DNA of 62,736 nt, the filler included, from Basidiobolus ranarum (taxonomy: Eukaryota): the NCBI GenBank assembly GCA_040143965.1. It is 18 parts of 18 records of this genome, joined end to end, with 100 filler letters (N's around TTAATTAATTAA, not from the genome) between each part and the next. Parts side by side here need not be neighbours in the genome. Positions count along the whole stretch, not along the records: positions 38,444 to 41,833 come from JASJQH010002521.1; 17 more parts are not named here. One strand, given 5' to 3'. The notes below the pieces were generated by a model. It was not told the origin of the DNA. It searched no databases and was given only the letters and a program-made list of their open reading frames with translations. Below are positions 3,402-41,933 of this stretch, piece after piece. The translations under genes were made by a program, and so were the position numbers. Every line of letters starts with the position of its first letter. The first letter of the stretch is position 1.

Positions 3402-3501
3402 NNNNNNNNNNNNNNNNNNNNNNNNNNNNNNNNNNNNNNNNNNNNTTAATTAATTAANNNNNNNNNNNNNNNNNNNNNNNNNNNNNNNNNNNNNNNNNNN
3501 N
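3402..3501. other. Artificial contig-joining spacer (N44-TTAATTAATTAA-N44), first of 17
   Basis: Identical 100-nt spacers with six-frame stops at 3402, 6902, 10402, 13899, 17394, 20888, 24381, 27872, 31363, 34854, 38344, 41834, 45322, 48808, 52293, 55776 and 59257. Contig lengths are non-increasing from about 3400 to 3380. Confidence 0.98.
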
Positions 3502-13588: not shown

Positions 13589-13998
13589 GTAAGCAATAGT
13601 TCTGTGTTCCAAAAATCAGTGGGTATGATATGAGCCGTATTGCAGTCAATTTGGACTTGTTTGAAATTTCAGCATAGCAATGTAGAGCTCCAAAATATCA
13701 TGAGTCCAATTCTGCTGGATAATAAATCTTTACTCAACATCATAGTTAACTTTAGTTACAATACATATATCGGAAACAGAAAGCAATGTATCTATAGCCC
13801 CTATATCTAAATAGGAATATCTCAATATCTGTATAATAAGTCTGTCTTATTCACCCCACTTATCTATTATATCTTATTACACAAACTCCTGAATATCTNN
13901 NNNNNNNNNNNNNNNNNNNNNNNNNNNNNNNNNNNNNNNNNNTTAATTAATTAANNNNNNNNNNNNNNNNNNNNNNNNNNNNNNNNNNNNNNNNNNNN

Positions 13999-14349
13999 TG
14001 GTTCGATGACAAGGAATATCGCATTGTTCGTATTATGGTCTTCCTTCTGATGGGTGCCGCTGGATTTGTTCCATTTGTTCATATGGTGATGCTCAATGGC
14101 TGGACCACTACATACATATTTATCCACAGACTTGGCCAATCCTTGGGCTGTTACCTTTTAGGTACTTACCTGTATGCTAACCATTACCCTGAGAAGCTCC
14201 TCCCAGGTGTGTTTGACACATGGGGCCATTCCCATCAACTTTGGCATCTCTGCGTCATGGGTGGAATCTATTATCACTATAAGTTCTCCTTAAGCTTCTA
14301 TCAGAATAGATGCAGTTATGGGTGCAGTGAAACTTGTGGCAGCTTATGA
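13999..14349 (+). CDS. PAQR/HlyIII (Izh/adiponectin-receptor family) membrane protein, C-terminal part
   Basis: WFDDKEYRIVRIMVF...YANHYPEKLLPGVFDTWGHSHQLWH contains the PExxxPGxFDxxGxSHQxxH signature. Confidence 0.92.
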   Translation, partial: WFDDKEYRIVRIMVFLLMGAAGFVPFVHMVMLNGWTTTYIFIHRLGQSLGCYLLGTYLYANHYPEKLLPGVFDTWGHSHQLWHLCVMGGIYYHYKFSLSFYQNRCSYGCSETCGSL

Positions 14350-21495: not shown

Positions 21496-22652
21496 ATGAA
21501 CGACAAATCGTTAGTATTTTCTGGTTACGAAGATGTTCATCCCGACTCAAAAGAGATCCCTCATTTTGTTCTAAAGTTATACAGGTGGGTGAATCAGTAT
21601 TTCATACAAATTTAATTGACTTGCTAACATTCCATTGGTAGAATTTTGGAAACTGAAAAGTATAGCGAGTATATTCGCTGGAATAATACGGGGGAAAGTT
21701 TTGTAATTCCAGATGGGCCTTTACTTGCTGCTGTTGTGCTACCTAATTTCTACAAATCCTCCACTTTTACTTCCTTCGTTCGACAACTTAACGTAAGTAT
21801 TTTCTTTGGTAAAGATATCTTACGGGGATACTGACTTGTTTATCAATCGTAGATCTATGGCTTTCGTCGAATCACTGATGCTCGAAAAGCAAAAAATCCA
21901 CCCAGTCAGTTAGCCTCAGCATTCGCTCATCCGAACTTTTGCCAGGGAAGAGTTAACAAGCTACATCTGATCAAAAGAAAGGTAAAGCGAACCTTCCGAG
22001 CCAAATGCAAAGATTTGCCGGATCTGAAGGGGAGTATTGACCACAGTTCGCTTATTCCAATCAACGGATTAGAATGTTCTTCAAGTGACACCGAGAGTTC
22101 AAACGAAATAGGTTTGTTGAGTGCGTCCTTATTGAAACAGGATAAATGAGAACTAATATATTCAGAACAGAGCATTCCCAAACAGATCATTCGGAAAACT
22201 GCCACAAGTGCCACAGCCTAATTGCTGAGGTTCAAGTATTACGAAGCATTTTACATCGCTATCAGCGCATGGAAGTTTCCACCGTGCCGCAGTCCCTCCC
22301 ATACAACCTTCCGATGGAATATGAAACCCATCCCTCTGGTTGCAACGAGATGAGTTTGAATGGCGTGCGATATCCTATGTATTCAACCGAGCCGGCGCCG
22401 CTCAGATTGCCGAATTGGTCGACAGAGATGTCCATTCCAGAAAATTCGGGATATGAGGTTACATCATCAGAGTTACCATCGTTCTTTTGTCAAGAGAATT
22501 CTGTCCCTAACTATTCATCCTCCATGGTGTGGAATACTGGGCCCTCGAATCCTCCTACTCAGCCTTATTCCGACAACATACCAACATTGTCGGTGGCTCT
22601 CGGATGGGATTCCTATACAAAATCTGATCATCGAGAGTCCCAAGCGATTTGA
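21496..22652 (+). CDS. Heat-shock-factor (HSF)-type DNA-binding protein, 4 exons (21496-21584, 21642-21792, 21853-22111, 22171-22652), ~326 aa
   Basis: Spliced translation reads IPHFVLKLYR|ILETEKYSEYIRWNNTGESFVI...LPNFYKSSTFTSFVRQLN|IYGFRR...FAHPNFCQG...LHLIKRK, an HSF DBD. GT-AG introns with CTAAC/CTGAC/CTAAT branch sites. Exon lengths sum to 981 nt. TATAAA upstream at about 21437. Confidence 0.9.
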
Positions 22653-25310
22653 TCACCTTGTTAACGCATATGACCATTCCAAATTTTGTCCATTTTCTAT
22701 CCATCCGCTCAAGCTAATAATGTCAATCCCCATATACTCGTCAATTCAGTTGTTTTAATTTTGTATTTTCTTTCTGTATTCATATCCCCTCCCCTCTCCT
22801 CTCGTCCCCTTCCCTCCCTACTTGTGCGATCCAGGAATAAATCAAATCACATTCTTGCTTGTTGTCCTGATGGTTTCACTTACGTATATTGCTGCTTGAG
22901 TCCATCGAATTTGTACTGCATTCTCAGATCATGGCGGCCAAGTCACAGAGCATCTTCGGTTAATCTTTTCTCACGGTCTCACTTCCTCGACAACGTTTTA
23001 ATGGTAGATCAGGATGGCAGTATCTTTATCTCCAACTGCCCTTAGCATGCTGCTGATGGATATCTCCCATTCGGTGTGGCCATTTACGCAAGTTTCGTTG
23101 ATCAGTGGTTGATGGTCTGATCCATTGAAATCGCTTCTTGCATAGAATCAGTATGGCAATTACCTTAGTCCTTATGTATATATAGCTTGGTTGATTTCAT
23201 GTGGTTGAACGCGTGTTTAAAGCTGTTGGTGTTAGACACTTAGCAAGCAACTATACTAGCAATGCCAACATACTCTATTATCATACTGCTGTTGTGTTGG
23301 GCGGCACCTACTCATAATAAGGCACCATTGCATTAATATTGATTAATTAGATATTCAGTACGCTGCCGGTACGGTAGCCTAAGGAGTAATAATCTATTCA
23401 GCTATATATAGACACAATCTACGGCAATCAGTTCAATCTGCTTGAAGTGTATTAAATGTTTCAACCATTGGTACCATTGTAGTCGGTCTTTGGAAAATTC
23501 GTGACCATGGATACTATATACTGAGTTCTATTTGGTCTCAAATTTTGGCCCTAGCCATTATTGTTTCTGTCTGAAAAGCGTAGCTTACATATACCCGGTT
23601 TAGTCTAGCTAAGAAATGTCTTCTGGGATATGCATTCCGATTTATAGTGCAAATTGAGAAGAGCTGCTTTGGAGCTGGTGAAGCAGACTAAGAGCCAGAC
23701 ACAGATTGAGATGGTTAGATCGGAGCAAGGCGAAATAGTAAGTGATAATGCTGATTAAGAACCAGCATTAGTCGTATTGCTAATTGGAAATAGATTTTTC
23801 TCTATAGCTATTCCCATTTTAAGTTAAGAAATATATGTTAGCACTCAGTTGATTTACAAATTGTAATAACGTGACAATCGCCAGGTCAAAGTGACTCCAG
23901 TTTCTTGTAGTGTATGATCAATTTACGTAGCTAATACTGCAAGTATGCAATTCATTGAGTTATTAGTTTAGTCGCAATTAAATATACTCTGCCTACGAAT
24001 CGATCATGATTGCCGCTCTTTATAACTTGATCAAGATATTTCAGTATTCCTATTTCTGACTGACTTTATAATTGCAATCTCTTCAACTATACATATATTT
24101 AGGAAATGTGTCCCCAATCTACTGAGGAAAAACAAGAAATGGCCACTCTGCCATACCAAGCAGCTGTTGGAAGTCTAAAGTATACTATGGTTGTAACCAG
24201 ACCTGATATTAGATGTGCTGTAGGAGCTGTGAGTTAGTACTTGACTAATCCTGGAACAATACAATGGACAGTAGTTAAAAGTGTTAAAGTATTTGGGAGC
24301 CTGTTGGAAGTGGTTTGGAGAATTAGAGAAATTGGTTGTTTTCACTGATTGATTAATTGAGTAGAAAGTGGACATTTATANNNNNNNNNNNNNNNNNNNN
24401 NNNNNNNNNNNNNNNNNNNNNNNNTTAATTAATTAANNNNNNNNNNNNNNNNNNNNNNNNNNNNNNNNNNNNNNNNNNNNTGGATGGATTTACTTGTAGT
24501 GTAGTGGAATAGTTGATAGTTGATGCAGCCCAAGCCACGAGGTCTCAGAAGGCGATGCAGGGAGGTCCATCTAGGATTAATTGCCGATTTAATATGCTCT
24601 GCACCTATCATACGCTATCGTTGCCATTTGCATTCCCTAATCTGACACTAATCGAATTCCCTTACGCTGTAGCTCACTCTCCTGAAAATTCGATTGTTTA
24701 ATCGCCTATTCAACCTGAAACAGGTTCAGTGATTTGTTCTGAGTGGCTTGTAGGGTAGGTATTTTTAGTACAAAGAACAGAGTGATGGCACGAAGTTTGG
24801 CTCAGGGAGCCACACACATCATTGCTGAATTGTCTATGAGGGTGAAGAGGCGCGATGTATTCGTCTAATAACTCGTCTAGAGTGAATGCAGGGGTGAAGT
24901 CCCGCCTTAAAGTAATCAACACTTTCCAATGCTTGATCTGAACACACAGATTTGATGATATTGTGGAACAATGACGCTCATTAATTACATTCTTTTTCTC
25001 AATTGGAGCGAATTTCATAGGCTTGGTTATTGTTAGCCCACACTCTAAAAATTCCCGATGACAAAAGGGGATCCCAAGGCAGTCTCTGGACATGTGTTTG
25101 TTGGCGGAAAAGTATAAAAAGCCTTGATCGTCCCAATCTTACCTCACGGCATTGACCCCCAATAGCTGCTGACAGGTTGAAGTCTCACTTCTTTGCTGTT
25201 CCCTTCGTATCGCTTTTCTTATCAACCCAAGTGACGAACGTAAACAGTGATTCTTAACTGATCCTAGTAAAGTGGTTATTTCTATAGATTGTCCTTGTCA
25301 TTGACGAAAA

Positions 25311-25676
25311 ATGGATTCTGACTGGTGTACAGTTTGTGGTAAACATGTGGAGACCTCTGGTCAGTTGTACTGCAACCAGACCTGCCGACAGAAAGATCAA
25401 CAGTCTGACTTGATAGTTTATGAGAAACACGATGGCGCCACACCAGTTCCCTTGATTGAGCGTTTCTCTTGTCCTCTAAAGCAACAACACCTTCGCTATC
25501 ATATCGAGTACCACGCTTCTAAAGAGCATTCCCCACCAAAAGTTGGTTACCCATTTCATTTGAAGTTATACAAGAAAAGCACTGCTTTCCGGCCAGTAGA
25601 TCTACGCCTCTTGTCGCTTACCAAGAAGTATCCTTCAATACAGTCGGGACGTCCTTTACTTACTGTTGCGCAGTAA
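25311..25676 (+). CDS. Ecl1-family (extender of chronological lifespan) zinc-binding protein
   Basis: The N-terminus MDSDWCTVCGKH...LYCNQTCRQKD fits the Ecl1/2/3 CxxC...YCxxxCRxxD pattern. TATAAAA upstream at about 25113. Confidence 0.8.
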   Translation: MDSDWCTVCGKHVETSGQLYCNQTCRQKDQQSDLIVYEKHDGATPVPLIERFSCPLKQQHLRYHIEYHASKEHSPPKVGYPFHLKLYKKSTAFRPVDLRLLSLTKKYPSIQSGRPLLTVAQ

Positions 25677-38343: not shown

Positions 38344-38443
38344 NNNNNNNNNNNNNNNNNNNNNNNNNNNNNNNNNNNNNNNNNNNNTTAATTAATTAAN
38401 NNNNNNNNNNNNNNNNNNNNNNNNNNNNNNNNNNNNNNNNNNN

Positions 38444-38722
38444 CAAATCACGCTTGTCGCTGGTGGTAGAGGATTGTTTTTGTACTATTTTCTCTTCAAC
38501 TTTCATAGAATTATCTTGTTCTGAGTAGTCAGCGATTGATGATAGGACAGAGCTCACTAAAGATACATCCTCACGTTTAGTATGGCCACAGAACCATCTG
38601 CCGCACAGATCGTGCAAATCTCTCTTGTCTCCGGCTAATTCTTCGGTGCCATGACCCATAGGTAGACTTTGAGCAGCCATAGTGAAGACAGAAGAAGCAA
38701 CTAAAATGGTAGCGAATTTCAT
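38444..38722 (-). CDS. Secreted Kex2-processed repeat peptide precursor 1 (core DLHDLCGRWFCGHT), 3'-truncated
   Basis: MKF signal peptide, then KR-DLHDLCGRWFCGHT-KR (38579-38620), an acidic spacer and a second KR-DL at the contig end. The likely start is the ATG at 38722. TATATAA about 60 nt upstream. Confidence 0.9.
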
Positions 38723-38831
38723 ACTAGTATTGAAAGATACTTGGGATTGATATGATAACGGCAAACTGTCGCCTAGCTACTTATATAGCTTGGTGATCTT
38801 TTATGTTGGAGGCAAAATTTGGATCATGCGG

Positions 38832-38852
38832 AGTTGATTGATTCCCAGAATA
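38832..38852 (-). promoter_or_regulatory. Conserved upstream motif of precursor 1 (TATTCTGGGAATCAATCAACT)
   Basis: 19/21 identical to 41427-41447 upstream of precursor 3. Both lie just upstream of a TATA box. Confidence 0.55.
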
Positions 38853-40213
38853 TGTATCAGGTGATACACACTAGCACAATATGACTGAAAGTATTCTACT
38901 TGCTATATTTCTTTACCAAATTTGTAATATTAAACTTGATCAAAAATCATTCATGTTCGTTGGCTTATAGTCTCTATCTTCCTGTATCTGAACACGCTTC
39001 TGAATGATTATCCCAGTCTTAAACTTGTGATGTAGATCAGGCAACATGTTAGAATTGGATTCTCTACCCTTATTACTTTTCACATGCTTTCGAGACAGCA
39101 TAACCCAAGAAAACTAAATCCAGTGACGAATGTTTGCTTAATTTACAACATTAAGAAAATTATTACAATATTCAATTGAACAAAAAAATCTCCAAAATAC
39201 TTCAGTGTGGTTGAAACAAAGGCAAGAGACAGAGGAGTACAGGTCAGCGAATAAAATTCTCCGAACTATTACAATTTAGTTAAGATCAAGACAAGAAATA
39301 ACTTAGGGTTAGGGTCAGGGAAGGATTGGGTACAGGCCATGTGTATGATTAAATATTCAAAAAAAACCGGCAATAGGACTGCCAACTAATAGTTAGTTCA
39401 ATAGCTGAAAGGGGCTGTACTTTTGCTTATTGAAGACGGAGGCTTTGTACAGTCTGAGTAAGAGCAGTAAAAACTGACAATAGGCTGATGAATTTCGTAA
39501 TTATATTTGTATAATACTTGAGATTTATGTTGCAATAGAATTGCTTGAAGACTCTTGTTCTATCACCTACTTACATAATTTAGTGACCATATCTCGACCA
39601 AAATACATATGATTTGTGATGCTCAATCGCTTTATTCCCAGAGCCTTAGGTTGTACAGGCTAGGTTAGATGGCTCCTGATTCTAGTGAATATCTTGCTAG
39701 TACCGTGGGATATTTCAGAAAATAACTTTCGGTCATTTGGTTGCTTATTGACCCTAGTGAGTATTTCTTAGAAGGATTCTCAGTTGATGGATTCCAAGAA
39801 TATTAAGTGACACTAGATCGATATCGTTGATTTTATGACGTTAGAACTGGTTGATCCCTGCAGTGCCATCGATATTGGCCATACTAATATTAAATCAGCT
39901 CAAATATCTAGAGTATTTGTTTAAATGTAAAAAATTGAAGAGTCCATATGTAGAGTTATAGTAAGTGATAGAATATTTATTGATTCAATTATTTGCCAAA
40001 TAGAGTACAAAATTACAACAGTATTGTTGAAACAAGGGTAGGATAACTGACTCCGGGTCAGTGATGAATGCCACGATAAATTAGTAGGAAATATGTAGGA
40101 TATATCAACTGAACTAACCATTTGATGAATTGCAAAAGTCGCACTCACAAACAAATTCACACTATTGAAATGAAAATGTGTTAAAGTCATCAATTTTGCA
40201 AATATTCTACACT

Positions 40214-40594
40214 TCACCTACGTAAATGTTTCATATTTCTCTTTAGCTCAGACCTGGTATAATCACGTAGAGCAATGCCTCGCTTCTTAGTGTGGCCACA
40301 AAACCATCTACCACAAAGGTCGTGTAGATCCCGCTTGTCGTTAGTAGTGGATGACTGTTCATGTGCTTCGGTCTTGATGAGAGCTGTTGACTCAGTATTG
40401 GTGGCTGCTGCATCAGTTAGACTCGTTAGAGATATTTCCTCACCACGTTTAGTATGACCACAGAACCATCTACCGCACAAATCATGCAAGTCTCTCTTGT
40501 TTCCAGCCAATTCATTGAAGGTCTGACCCGTAGGTAGACCCTGAACCAGTAGAGTAAGAATAACAGAAGTAGCAATCAGACTGGAGAGTTTCAT
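40214..40594 (-). CDS. Secreted Kex2-processed repeat peptide precursor 2 (complete, 126 aa, two cores)
   Basis: Signal peptide MKLSSLIATSVILTLLVQG, two identical KR-flanked cores (40451-40492 and 40289-40330), basic tail. TATAAAA upstream. Confidence 0.93.
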   Translation of the reverse strand: MKLSSLIATSVILTLLVQGLPTGQTFNELAGNKRDLHDLCGRWFCGHTKRGEEISLTSLTDAAATNTESTALIKTEAHEQSSTTNDKRDLHDLCGRWFCGHTKKRGIALRDYTRSELKRNMKHLRR

Positions 40595-41426
40595 AGTTGT
40601 AATGGAGTGATTCTTGATTCAATGTTATTAAAGTAAAGAAGTGAGCTGTAGATATTTATATCCCTTTTGAAGACATCTTAGAATGAGATAGTGTGACCGT
40701 TAACGTTTAATGGGCTCATTTGCAGAGTATACTATACTTCGAACACATATCAGTTTGATTAGTGCATTTAAACCAGAATAGACCCGGTTATATTAACATA
40801 CTTTCAGCCTGTGTACAGCCGATCATTAATTCAGAGTATTCATGATTGATTATGTATGGAGATATCTTGCTAGGCTCACACGAAGAATTACGCTTCTCTT
40901 CCTTATATGTGCGCAAAACCATCTACCGTACAGAACATAGTGATAGTTCATCTAATATTTTACAAGCATTGACTTATTGTAGATACTTTTATGCTGTCGG
41001 TGGCATATATCGAAGTGGAAAATGGCTATGCATGGGGAAAAACCAATCCGGAAATTCTAGGGAGATTAACATGTTTTATCCTCATATTGTATAAAATGTC
41101 AATTTGAGTTATTCTAGGAATTCAACAACTGAGAACCTAGATGACACTGTCTCATTGTATTTCTACTAAGAAATTCTCGGTAAATTCAATAAGTAGCCAA
41201 ATTACCAAAACATACTTTAGAGATGAAGTTATCGAAATATTCACAGTTGATAATGATGGATAGTCTTCACTCTGGATTTATTTGTTATATATATATATGT
41301 ATACAGCCAATTCCATAATCTACGTTTTGCGAATTACCTGCGATGGAACAGGTCTTATGGCTGTACTCGATTTTTCACGAAACCTTAACCTGCCCCATCC
41401 ATTTACGGATTGTACTACCCAATTTG

Positions 41427-41447
41427 TATTCTGGGAATCAGCCAACT
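41427..41447 (+). promoter_or_regulatory. Conserved upstream motif of precursor 3 (TATTCTGGGAATCAGCCAACT)
   Basis: Counterpart of 38832-38852. The flanking promoter sequence does not align obviously. Confidence 0.55.
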
Positions 41448-41554
41448 GAGAAGTACTTCGAGATATTGACTAAACTATAAAAGTAACTAGGTATCAGAGT
41501 ACTATTCTTCACACTGATCTGTTACAATATCAATTACAATCCGCTTTCTGAGTC

Positions 41555-41833
41555 ATGAAATTCTACACCATAGCTATTGCTTCTACTGTTGTATCACTGG
41601 CTGCTCAAAGTCTACCTATGGGCCAAAACACCCAAGTAATAGCAGGAGACAAGAGAGATTTACACGACCTGTGCGGCAGATGGTTCTGTGGCCATACTAA
41701 ACGTGAGGATGCATCTTTAGTAAGCTCTGTCCTATCATCAATCGCTGACTACTCAGAACAAGATAAGTCTATGAAAGTTGAAGAGAAAATAGTACAAAAA
41801 CAATCCTCTACCACCAGCGACAAGCGTGATTTG
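41555..41833 (+). CDS. Secreted Kex2-processed repeat peptide precursor 3, 3'-truncated
   Basis: Signal peptide, KR-core-KR at 41657-41698, spacer nearly identical to precursor 1, second KR-DL at the contig end. TATAAAAG at about 41476. Confidence 0.9.
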
Positions 41834-41933
41834 NNNNNNNNNNNNNNNNNNNNNNNNNNNNNNNNNNNNNNNNNNNNTTAATTAATTAANNNNNNNNNNN
41901 NNNNNNNNNNNNNNNNNNNNNNNNNNNNNNNNN

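Follow-up and report, generated by a model that had tools for sequence, protein, structure and literature searches.

Thousands of Kex2-processed repeat precursors have been catalogued in fungi, and almost none of them has a known function. The precursor family to which the locus described here belongs, in the early-diverging fungus Basidiobolus ranarum, is an unusually clean case of such a KEP: a near-invariant 14-residue peptide under selection, at least 46 encoded copies of it, and an N-terminal chemistry that can be predicted. The question raised by this locus is what the peptide does after its release and, in particular, whether its first three residues, Asp-Leu-His, make it a metal-binding molecule. 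The preliminary description of this DNA proposed that precursor processing unmasks an ATCUN copper/nickel-binding motif, and that the mature peptide could be a metal scavenger, a copper-dependent antimicrobial or a metal-gated signal. If the native peptide binds copper, it would tie the biology of fungal peptide precursors to the way in which a gut-dwelling and occasionally pathogenic fungus handles metals; otherwise the family would still offer a good candidate for what would be the first peptide signal from the Basidiobolus lineage.

The precursor gene and its contig

The window, by which we mean the whole analysed stretch of 62,736 nucleotides, consists of about 18 separate short contigs separated by 17 joiners, which follow from 3402-3501 onward every ~3.49 kb; their spacing declines from 3500 to 3481, the contigs being ordered by decreasing length. 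Since the window is a chain of separate contigs, linkage cannot be assumed between features of different segments, and physical linkage to the gene in question (gene B) covers only positions 38444-41833 (3390 nt). A Pfam analysis of 100 window ORFs of at least 75 aa revealed HlyIII, HSF and Ecl1 domains, a Nup133-like piece and decayed copia elements, all rejected as neighbours of gene B because they lie on unlinked contigs. The HlyIII, HSF DNA-binding and Ecl1 domains lie in exon-sized ORFs at 13951-14346, 21853-22146 and 25305-25673 (all on the plus strand), and several other contigs of the window hold decayed copia-type retroelement pieces (gag, Pol_BBD, rve, RVT_2). A scan for bacterial promoters and terminators gave 13 promoter-like sites against 13.2 expected and was set aside as irrelevant for a eukaryote.

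Gene B encodes a prepropeptide whose translation reads as a signal peptide, a pro-region, core 1, a spacer, core 2 and a basic tail (Table 1). The span 40289-40492 (minus strand), on which the preliminary description was centred, opens with the codon that starts core 1 and closes with the one that ends core 2, all within this single ORF. The N-terminus is hydrophobic, with a Kyte-Doolittle hydropathy of 2.1-2.5 over the first ~17 residues (9-residue window), the hydrophobic stretch is kept in the aligned paralogues, and on inspection we judge it to be the N-terminal ER signal peptide by which KEPs are defined, together with two or more repeats separated by KR or RR sites. The repeats of gene B are two identical cores flanked by dibasic pairs. 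From this architecture, together with the selection pattern and the prior listing of homologues described below, we consider the gene B family to be KEPs, and it is very likely that the gene B product is a KEP-derived secreted peptide.

Table 1. Features of the contig with gene B and of its borders; positions count along the window
Feature	Positions	Strand	Evidence
Contig joiner N44-TTAATTAATTAA-N44, not biological	38344..38443	.	N-run pattern
Paralogue A, cut by contig end inside core 2	38444..38722	-	Family profile, 131.4 bits
Possible 5' remnant, signal-peptide-like, without ATG	39430..39570	-	Weak profile match, E 0.032
Gene B, precursor of 126 aa (prepropeptide), stop codon included	40214..40594	-	ORF; family profile, 192.8 bits
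Basic C-terminal tail, residues 106-126, x-x-L-R-x-x-L-R-S	40217..40279	-	Moderately conserved in paralogues
Lys-Lys-Arg after core 2	40280..40288	-	ORF and paralogue alignment
Core 2, DLHDLCGRWFCGHT, residues 89-102	40289..40330	-	Preceded by D-K-R, followed by K-K-R
Lys87-Arg88, dibasic site before core 2	40331..40336	-	ORF and paralogue alignment
Inter-core spacer, residues 51-86, about 36-40 aa, poorly conserved	40337..40444	-	Paralogue alignment
Lys49-Arg50, dibasic site after core 1	40445..40450	-	R50 invariant in paralogue alignment
Core 1, DLHDLCGRWFCGHT, residues 35-48	40451..40492	-	Preceded by N-K-R, followed by K-R
Lys33-Arg34, dibasic Kex2-type site before core 1	40493..40498	-	K33 and R34 invariant in 21/21 aligned paralogues
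Predicted signal peptide, ~residues 1-19, approximate cleavage site	40538..40594	-	Kyte-Doolittle, judged by inspection
TATA-like box TATAAATA, 60-67 nt upstream of gene B ATG	40654..40661	-	Sequence inspection
Decayed fourth copy, 3' portion comprising the loop and basic tail; first Cys missing	40853..40951	-	Profile, E 4.9e-07
Paralogue C, cut by contig end inside core 2	41555..41833	+	Family profile, 132.4 bits
Contig joiner N44-TTAATTAATTAA-N44, not biological	41834..41933	.	N-run pattern

AlphaFold2, applied to an alignment of 21 family sequences, gave no usable model (pLDDT 52.6, pTM 0.27), and residues 47-87, in the region of the spacer, stay below a pLDDT of 50. The tail (K-K-R-S/G-x-x-L-R-x-x-L-R-S...) is modelled as a helix with pLDDT ~70. 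It may direct sorting or constitute a second product of the precursor.

Genes A and C at the two ends of the contig are an inverted duplicate, 93% complementary. The decayed fourth copy matches profile positions 95-117 and, at the DNA level, is 71% identical to gene B at its 3' end; the presence of decayed remnants between the intact genes suggests a birth-and-death turnover in the array. An alignment of the regions upstream of genes A, B and C reveals a TATA box common to them and places a TATATAAG box before gene A at the position that matches the TATA-like box of gene B. Genes A and C also share a TTCTGGGAATCA-type element, TATTCTGGGAATCA(A/G)(T/C)CAACT, located ~130 nt upstream of the ATG (approximately at 38850-38870 for gene A and 41420-41440 for gene C, while gene B matches it more weakly), and this may be a common promoter element; the alignment offered nothing to which a function could be assigned among the shared upstream elements.

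The family and the selection on its core

Over 98% of its length, gene B matches the B. ranarum hypothetical protein K7432_016167 with 100% identity, and a word-indexed search places 21 proteins of this species in the family (E from 1.7e-77 to 5.1e-15). With two partial genes added to the 21 annotated ones, B. ranarum holds at least 23 genes of the family, which provide the copy number given above. Many of the locus tags are consecutive on single short contigs (six on 7.7 kb, five on 6.7 kb), which identifies the genes as tandem arrays, and these arrays break the B. ranarum assembly. A profile of the 21 sequences, run against 1.84 billion cluster representatives, gave 7 matches with E ≤0.001, all from Basidiobolus and belonging to B. 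ranarum or B. meristosporus only. As far as these sequence searches reach, the family is found only in Basidiobolus, where it is tandemly amplified.

Five gene models of the family were seen in B. meristosporus (P0022, P0023, P0024, P0026, P0030). They carry DLHDFCGGWFCGH(V/P) after D/E-K-R, and the core DLHDFCGGWFCGHV matches that of B. ranarum in 11 of 14 positions. A more distant branch, represented in both species (P0025, P0027, P0028), has cores of the type KR|FWNMR(Y/F)YCGGW-x-C-x-H-x; common to the two branches is a module of the ring and the His, C-G-G/R-W-x-C-x-H, while their N-terminal arms differ. In the B. ranarum paralogues P0019 and P0020 a third loop-like motif, G-L-D-R-F-C-(G/E)-G-W-F-C, was seen at the extreme C-terminus, with no dibasic site before it and no His tail.

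Table S2 of Umemura 2020 (PMC7329392) assigns two B. meristosporus homologues, ORX98272.1 and ORX98273.1, to KEP type 468; that survey covers 7878 KEPs, and B. meristosporus, with 43, is its most KEP-rich strain. In the same table, these entries have a blank 'DUF3328 in vicinity' column and no pheromone-profile match. The family is already catalogued as a KEP, in the available parts of the survey with no sequence-level comment or function, and the ATCUN idea is new. Literature searches gave no match for the 14-mer as a text string, nothing relevant for ATCUN together with Kex2 precursors, no treatment of the DLHDLCGRWFCGHT peptide for ATCUN with pheromone, and no match for DUF7586. For Basidiobolus with Kex2 the only match was the KEP survey (PMC7329392), whose accessible part does not treat the peptide; for Basidiobolus with pheromone no treatment of it appeared among the matches listed, judging by titles and the start of abstracts, and for Basidiobolus with copper there was nothing relevant by title among the matches listed.

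Searches for known domains and structures were similarly unproductive. The matches to Pfam DUF7586 (PF24491), spanning 17 to 28 residues each, scored 20.2, 19.9, 20.1, 13.9, 14.9 and 14.5 bits against a gathering cut-off of 27 and were rejected; together with zf-RING_13, Int_N and others found on the precursor and nine relatives, we regard them as noise of sub-threshold short Cys-motif matches. The best hit of a PDB sequence search had an E value of 0.94, which is meaningless.

For the A/B, A/C and B/C pairs, Nei-Gojobori-type counts over the core with its flanking KR give pN of 0, 0 and 0 with pS of 0.50, 0.19 and 0.70, while in the rest of the gene pN is 0.41, 0.10 and 0.42 and pS is 0.60, 0.16 and 0.60. 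Because pN is zero in the core and 0.10-0.42 elsewhere, selection acts on the core only: the 14-mer is the selected product, and the remainder of the precursor is close to neutral. Among the four readable cores of the window, 2 to 9 of the 14 codons differ, always synonymously; cores 1 and 2 of gene B stand at the upper end of this range, with 9/14 codons changed and the peptide the same. The repeated KR|DLH start is thus no accident.

On a wider scale, we compared 50 dibasic-preceded cores from 28 proteins of the two species, 43 of these cores coming from B. ranarum. The counts are D49, L50, H49, D48, L41/F8/I1, C50 and G50 for positions 1-7, and R37/G12/N1, W49, F48, C49, G50, H50 and T43/V6/P1 for positions 8-14, so that nine positions (1, 2, 3, 6, 7, 9, 11, 12, 13) are fixed in at least 49 of the 50 cores. 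Within B. ranarum 32/43 cores are identical to the letter. A dibasic pair precedes all 50 cores and comes after 48 of them. The changes between species fall on positions 5, 8 and 14, which fits a species-specific signal, and the nine fixed positions taken with the number of identical cores fit recognition by a specific partner.

Possible roles of the released peptide

An ATCUN site is defined as an N-terminal Xaa-Zaa-His in which Zaa is neither Cys nor Pro (PMC8640992). As the preliminary description had it, every core starts with Asp-Leu-His immediately after Lys-Arg, and we see this in both cores of gene B and likewise in the first cores of genes A and C. A variable His3 in homologues was named there as an outcome that would refute the idea, and this is not what we see: His3 is present in 49/50 cores, including both of gene B and 7/7 in B. 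meristosporus, the sole exception being an Arg in P0016, and residue 2 is Leu in 50/50. The Lys-Arg pair stands directly before core residue 1, and the core start contains no X-Ala or X-Pro dipeptide. Dipeptides of these kinds are what a Ste13-type trimming enzyme removes. From the invariant KR|D junction and this lack of trimming dipeptides we infer that the mature peptide probably begins with a free, unblocked Asp-Leu-His. If so, binding of Cu(II) or Ni(II) is to be expected in vitro; the Xaa-Zaa-His class has log K values from 12.3 to about 15 at pH 7.4, which would make such binding nearly assured with a free amine, and the square-planar 4N Cu(II) ATCUN complex has its d-d band near 525 nm (PMC8640992).

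The further ligands suggested earlier, Asp4, the two Cys (Cys6 and Cys11) and His13, are at the stated places in the gene B cores, and B. ranarum and B. meristosporus both keep all six named residues (D1, H3, D4, C6, C11, H13). One can also envisage a thiolate site for Zn or Cu(I) with His3, Cys6, Cys11 and His13 as its four ligands, on the sole condition that the Cys stay reduced after secretion. We consider the ATCUN reading chemically plausible, and the predicted exposure of a motif of this definition by processing is the part of the preliminary description that stands; the functional part, in which the peptide was a scavenger, a copper-dependent antimicrobial or a metal-gated signal, does not follow, as nothing in our evidence singles out metal binding and metal binding as a function is not indicated.

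It would be logical to suggest the following route. The signal peptide would direct the 126-residue precursor to secretion, each Lys-Arg would be followed by a cut of a Kex2-type convertase, and a carboxypeptidase would remove the trailing basic residues, so that each precursor would yield two copies of the 14-mer DLHDLCGRWFCGHT, in which a Cys6-Cys11 disulfide probably closes a six-residue ring. The calculated monoisotopic mass of this 14-mer is 1656.693 Da with the disulfide ([M+2H]2+ at 829.354) and 1658.708 Da when reduced. The 14-mer may then be a diffusible extracellular signal, pheromone-like or autocrine, which a specific partner recognises in its entirety, with copper binding in a secondary or modulating part and not in the leading one. 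A likeness of the peptide to vertebrate ring-of-six peptide hormones was considered and rejected, the only basic residue of the ring, Arg8, being Gly in 12/50 cores.

Signalling as the main role is the reading we tentatively prefer, while rating its chances at somewhat below even. In its favour are the nine fixed positions, the modest difference between species and a precursor logic like that of alpha-factor. As a weak lead, a protein language model put the precursor near an MF-alpha cluster with a score of 0.83, where the best score was 0.86 (ESM Atlas), this recognition value being below the reliability mark; Pfam MF_alpha and MF_alpha_N gave no match at E ≤0.01 for the precursor and at E ≤1 for nine relatives. 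The reading is weakened by the missing MF-alpha homology and the long spacers unlike those of alpha-factor precursors, and by a number of genes and copies far above the usual need for pheromone genes. Such a high copy number suits roles in which amount matters, such as those of a chelator, a toxin or a material.

That the main job of the peptide would be metal binding, by a 4N Cu(II)/Ni(II) ATCUN complex in a scavenger, detoxifier or copper-dependent oxidant secreted in bulk, seems unlikely to us. The motif is there in nearly every core, the large gene dosage suits an amount-dependent role, and the conservation of ligands with species changes confined to non-ligand positions is a pattern that suits metal binding as well as signalling; the peptide is rich in His, Asp and Cys and anionic, with a computed charge of ~-1.4 at pH 7.4. 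The fungus inhabits amphibian guts and makes siderophores (PMC10386755), and hepcidin is a precedent, rightly cited in the preliminary description, of an ATCUN site (DTH) exposed by a convertase, furin cutting after an Arg run, beside disulfides (PMC9779829). The biological role of this hepcidin site, in the words of the same source, 'remains to be seen' (PMC9779829). Against metal binding as the main job, the non-ligand residues L2, G7, W9 and G12 are as fixed as the ligands, the ATCUN idea leaves the invariant Leu2 unexplained, and the sister subfamily with the same loop starts with F-W-N after KR. By chance alone, ~2% of processed peptides, or about one peptide family in forty, would be expected to carry His at position 3, a rate to be read against the thousands of KEPs listed in the survey (PMC7329392). 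The copper-response element TTTGCKCR of the yeast Mac1 literature is not enriched, with 3 found against 6.0 expected; its single local match lies within a decayed coding remnant. Still less probable, in our estimate, is the stronger form of the idea, by which the amplified tandem genes would supply a bulk Cu(II)/Ni(II) peptide with which copper in the amphibian gut is captured, buffered or used as a weapon; were it true, the peptide would be a fungal counterpart of bacterial chalkophores, built on a KEP/pheromone-precursor chassis.

The same abundance could serve antagonism, many genes providing large amounts of a toxin or antimicrobial directed at gut bacteria, other fungi, or host or prey cells. 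The high gene number with birth-and-death turnover of the arrays, the shape of a small secreted disulfide-looped peptide with a Trp-Phe pair, and a competitive gut and dung niche (PMC10386755) speak for such a role, which we nevertheless doubt: the peptide is anionic, whereas most antimicrobial peptides are cationic and amphipathic, its only basic residue, Arg8, is replaced by Gly in 12/50 cores, arms-race peptides usually diversify while most cores here are identical, and no PDB chain matched at E <0.9. A quite different view would take the 14-mer as the core of a further modified RiPP, so that the final product would have neither the free Asp-Leu-His end nor a simple disulfide. Many KEPs are indeed RiPP precursors, for example of the ustiloxin type (PMC7329392), the invariant Trp, Cys and His are typical cross-link sites, and tailoring enzymes may be encoded beyond the visible 3.39 kb. 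We hold this to be improbable, since no DUF3328/UstYa is flagged near the B. meristosporus homologues in Table S2 of that survey (PMC7329392), and a Pfam search of ORFs of at least 75 aa on the 3.39-kb contig, a weak test on so short a contig, revealed no tailoring-enzyme domain, DUF3328/UstYa included. An assignment to dikaritin (ustiloxin-type) precursors is unsupported for the same reason.

Comparison with known peptide systems

The closest known relative of gene B is KEP type 468 of B. meristosporus, which represents the same protein family and likewise combines a signal peptide with cores repeated between Lys-Arg sites (PMC7329392). The B. ranarum branch is far more amplified, with 21 genes and 2 partial ones against 5 models, and the available part of the survey carries no ATCUN reading, sequence logo or function for this type (PMC7329392). 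The FWNMR-type precursors, of which three gene models were found, are a sister in the same genus; they share the C-G-G-W-x-C-x-H module and the Lys-Arg release sites, and differ in the arm F-W-N-M-R-(Y/F)-Y, so that no His stands at position 3.

Two other likenesses concern the N-terminal chemistry. Hepcidin-25 has an N-terminal Asp-x-His ATCUN site that is exposed by furin-type cleavage and adjoins disulfide-bonded Cys (PMC9779829). Being a vertebrate hormone with eight Cys that acts on ferroportin, it is unrelated in sequence to the Basidiobolus peptide. Albumin gains its free ATCUN end when a propeptide is cleaved off behind Arg-Arg. Serum albumin, represented by the DAHK model peptide, has an Asp-x-His site of the same kind (PMC8640992), on a large carrier protein as opposed to the short released peptide of Basidiobolus.

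In its logic the gene B family resembles the precursor of the yeast alpha-factor (MF-alpha). There is no sequence relationship between the two, the Basidiobolus precursors have long spacers (about 36-40 aa) without X-Ala trimming dipeptides, and their peptide has a Cys loop, a His at position 3 instead of 2, and far more genes. Both share a secreted precursor with Kex2 sites and several identical copies of the peptide, and the mature alpha-factor also has an N-terminal His-type Cu(II) site, Cu(II) being said to activate it (PMC8640992).
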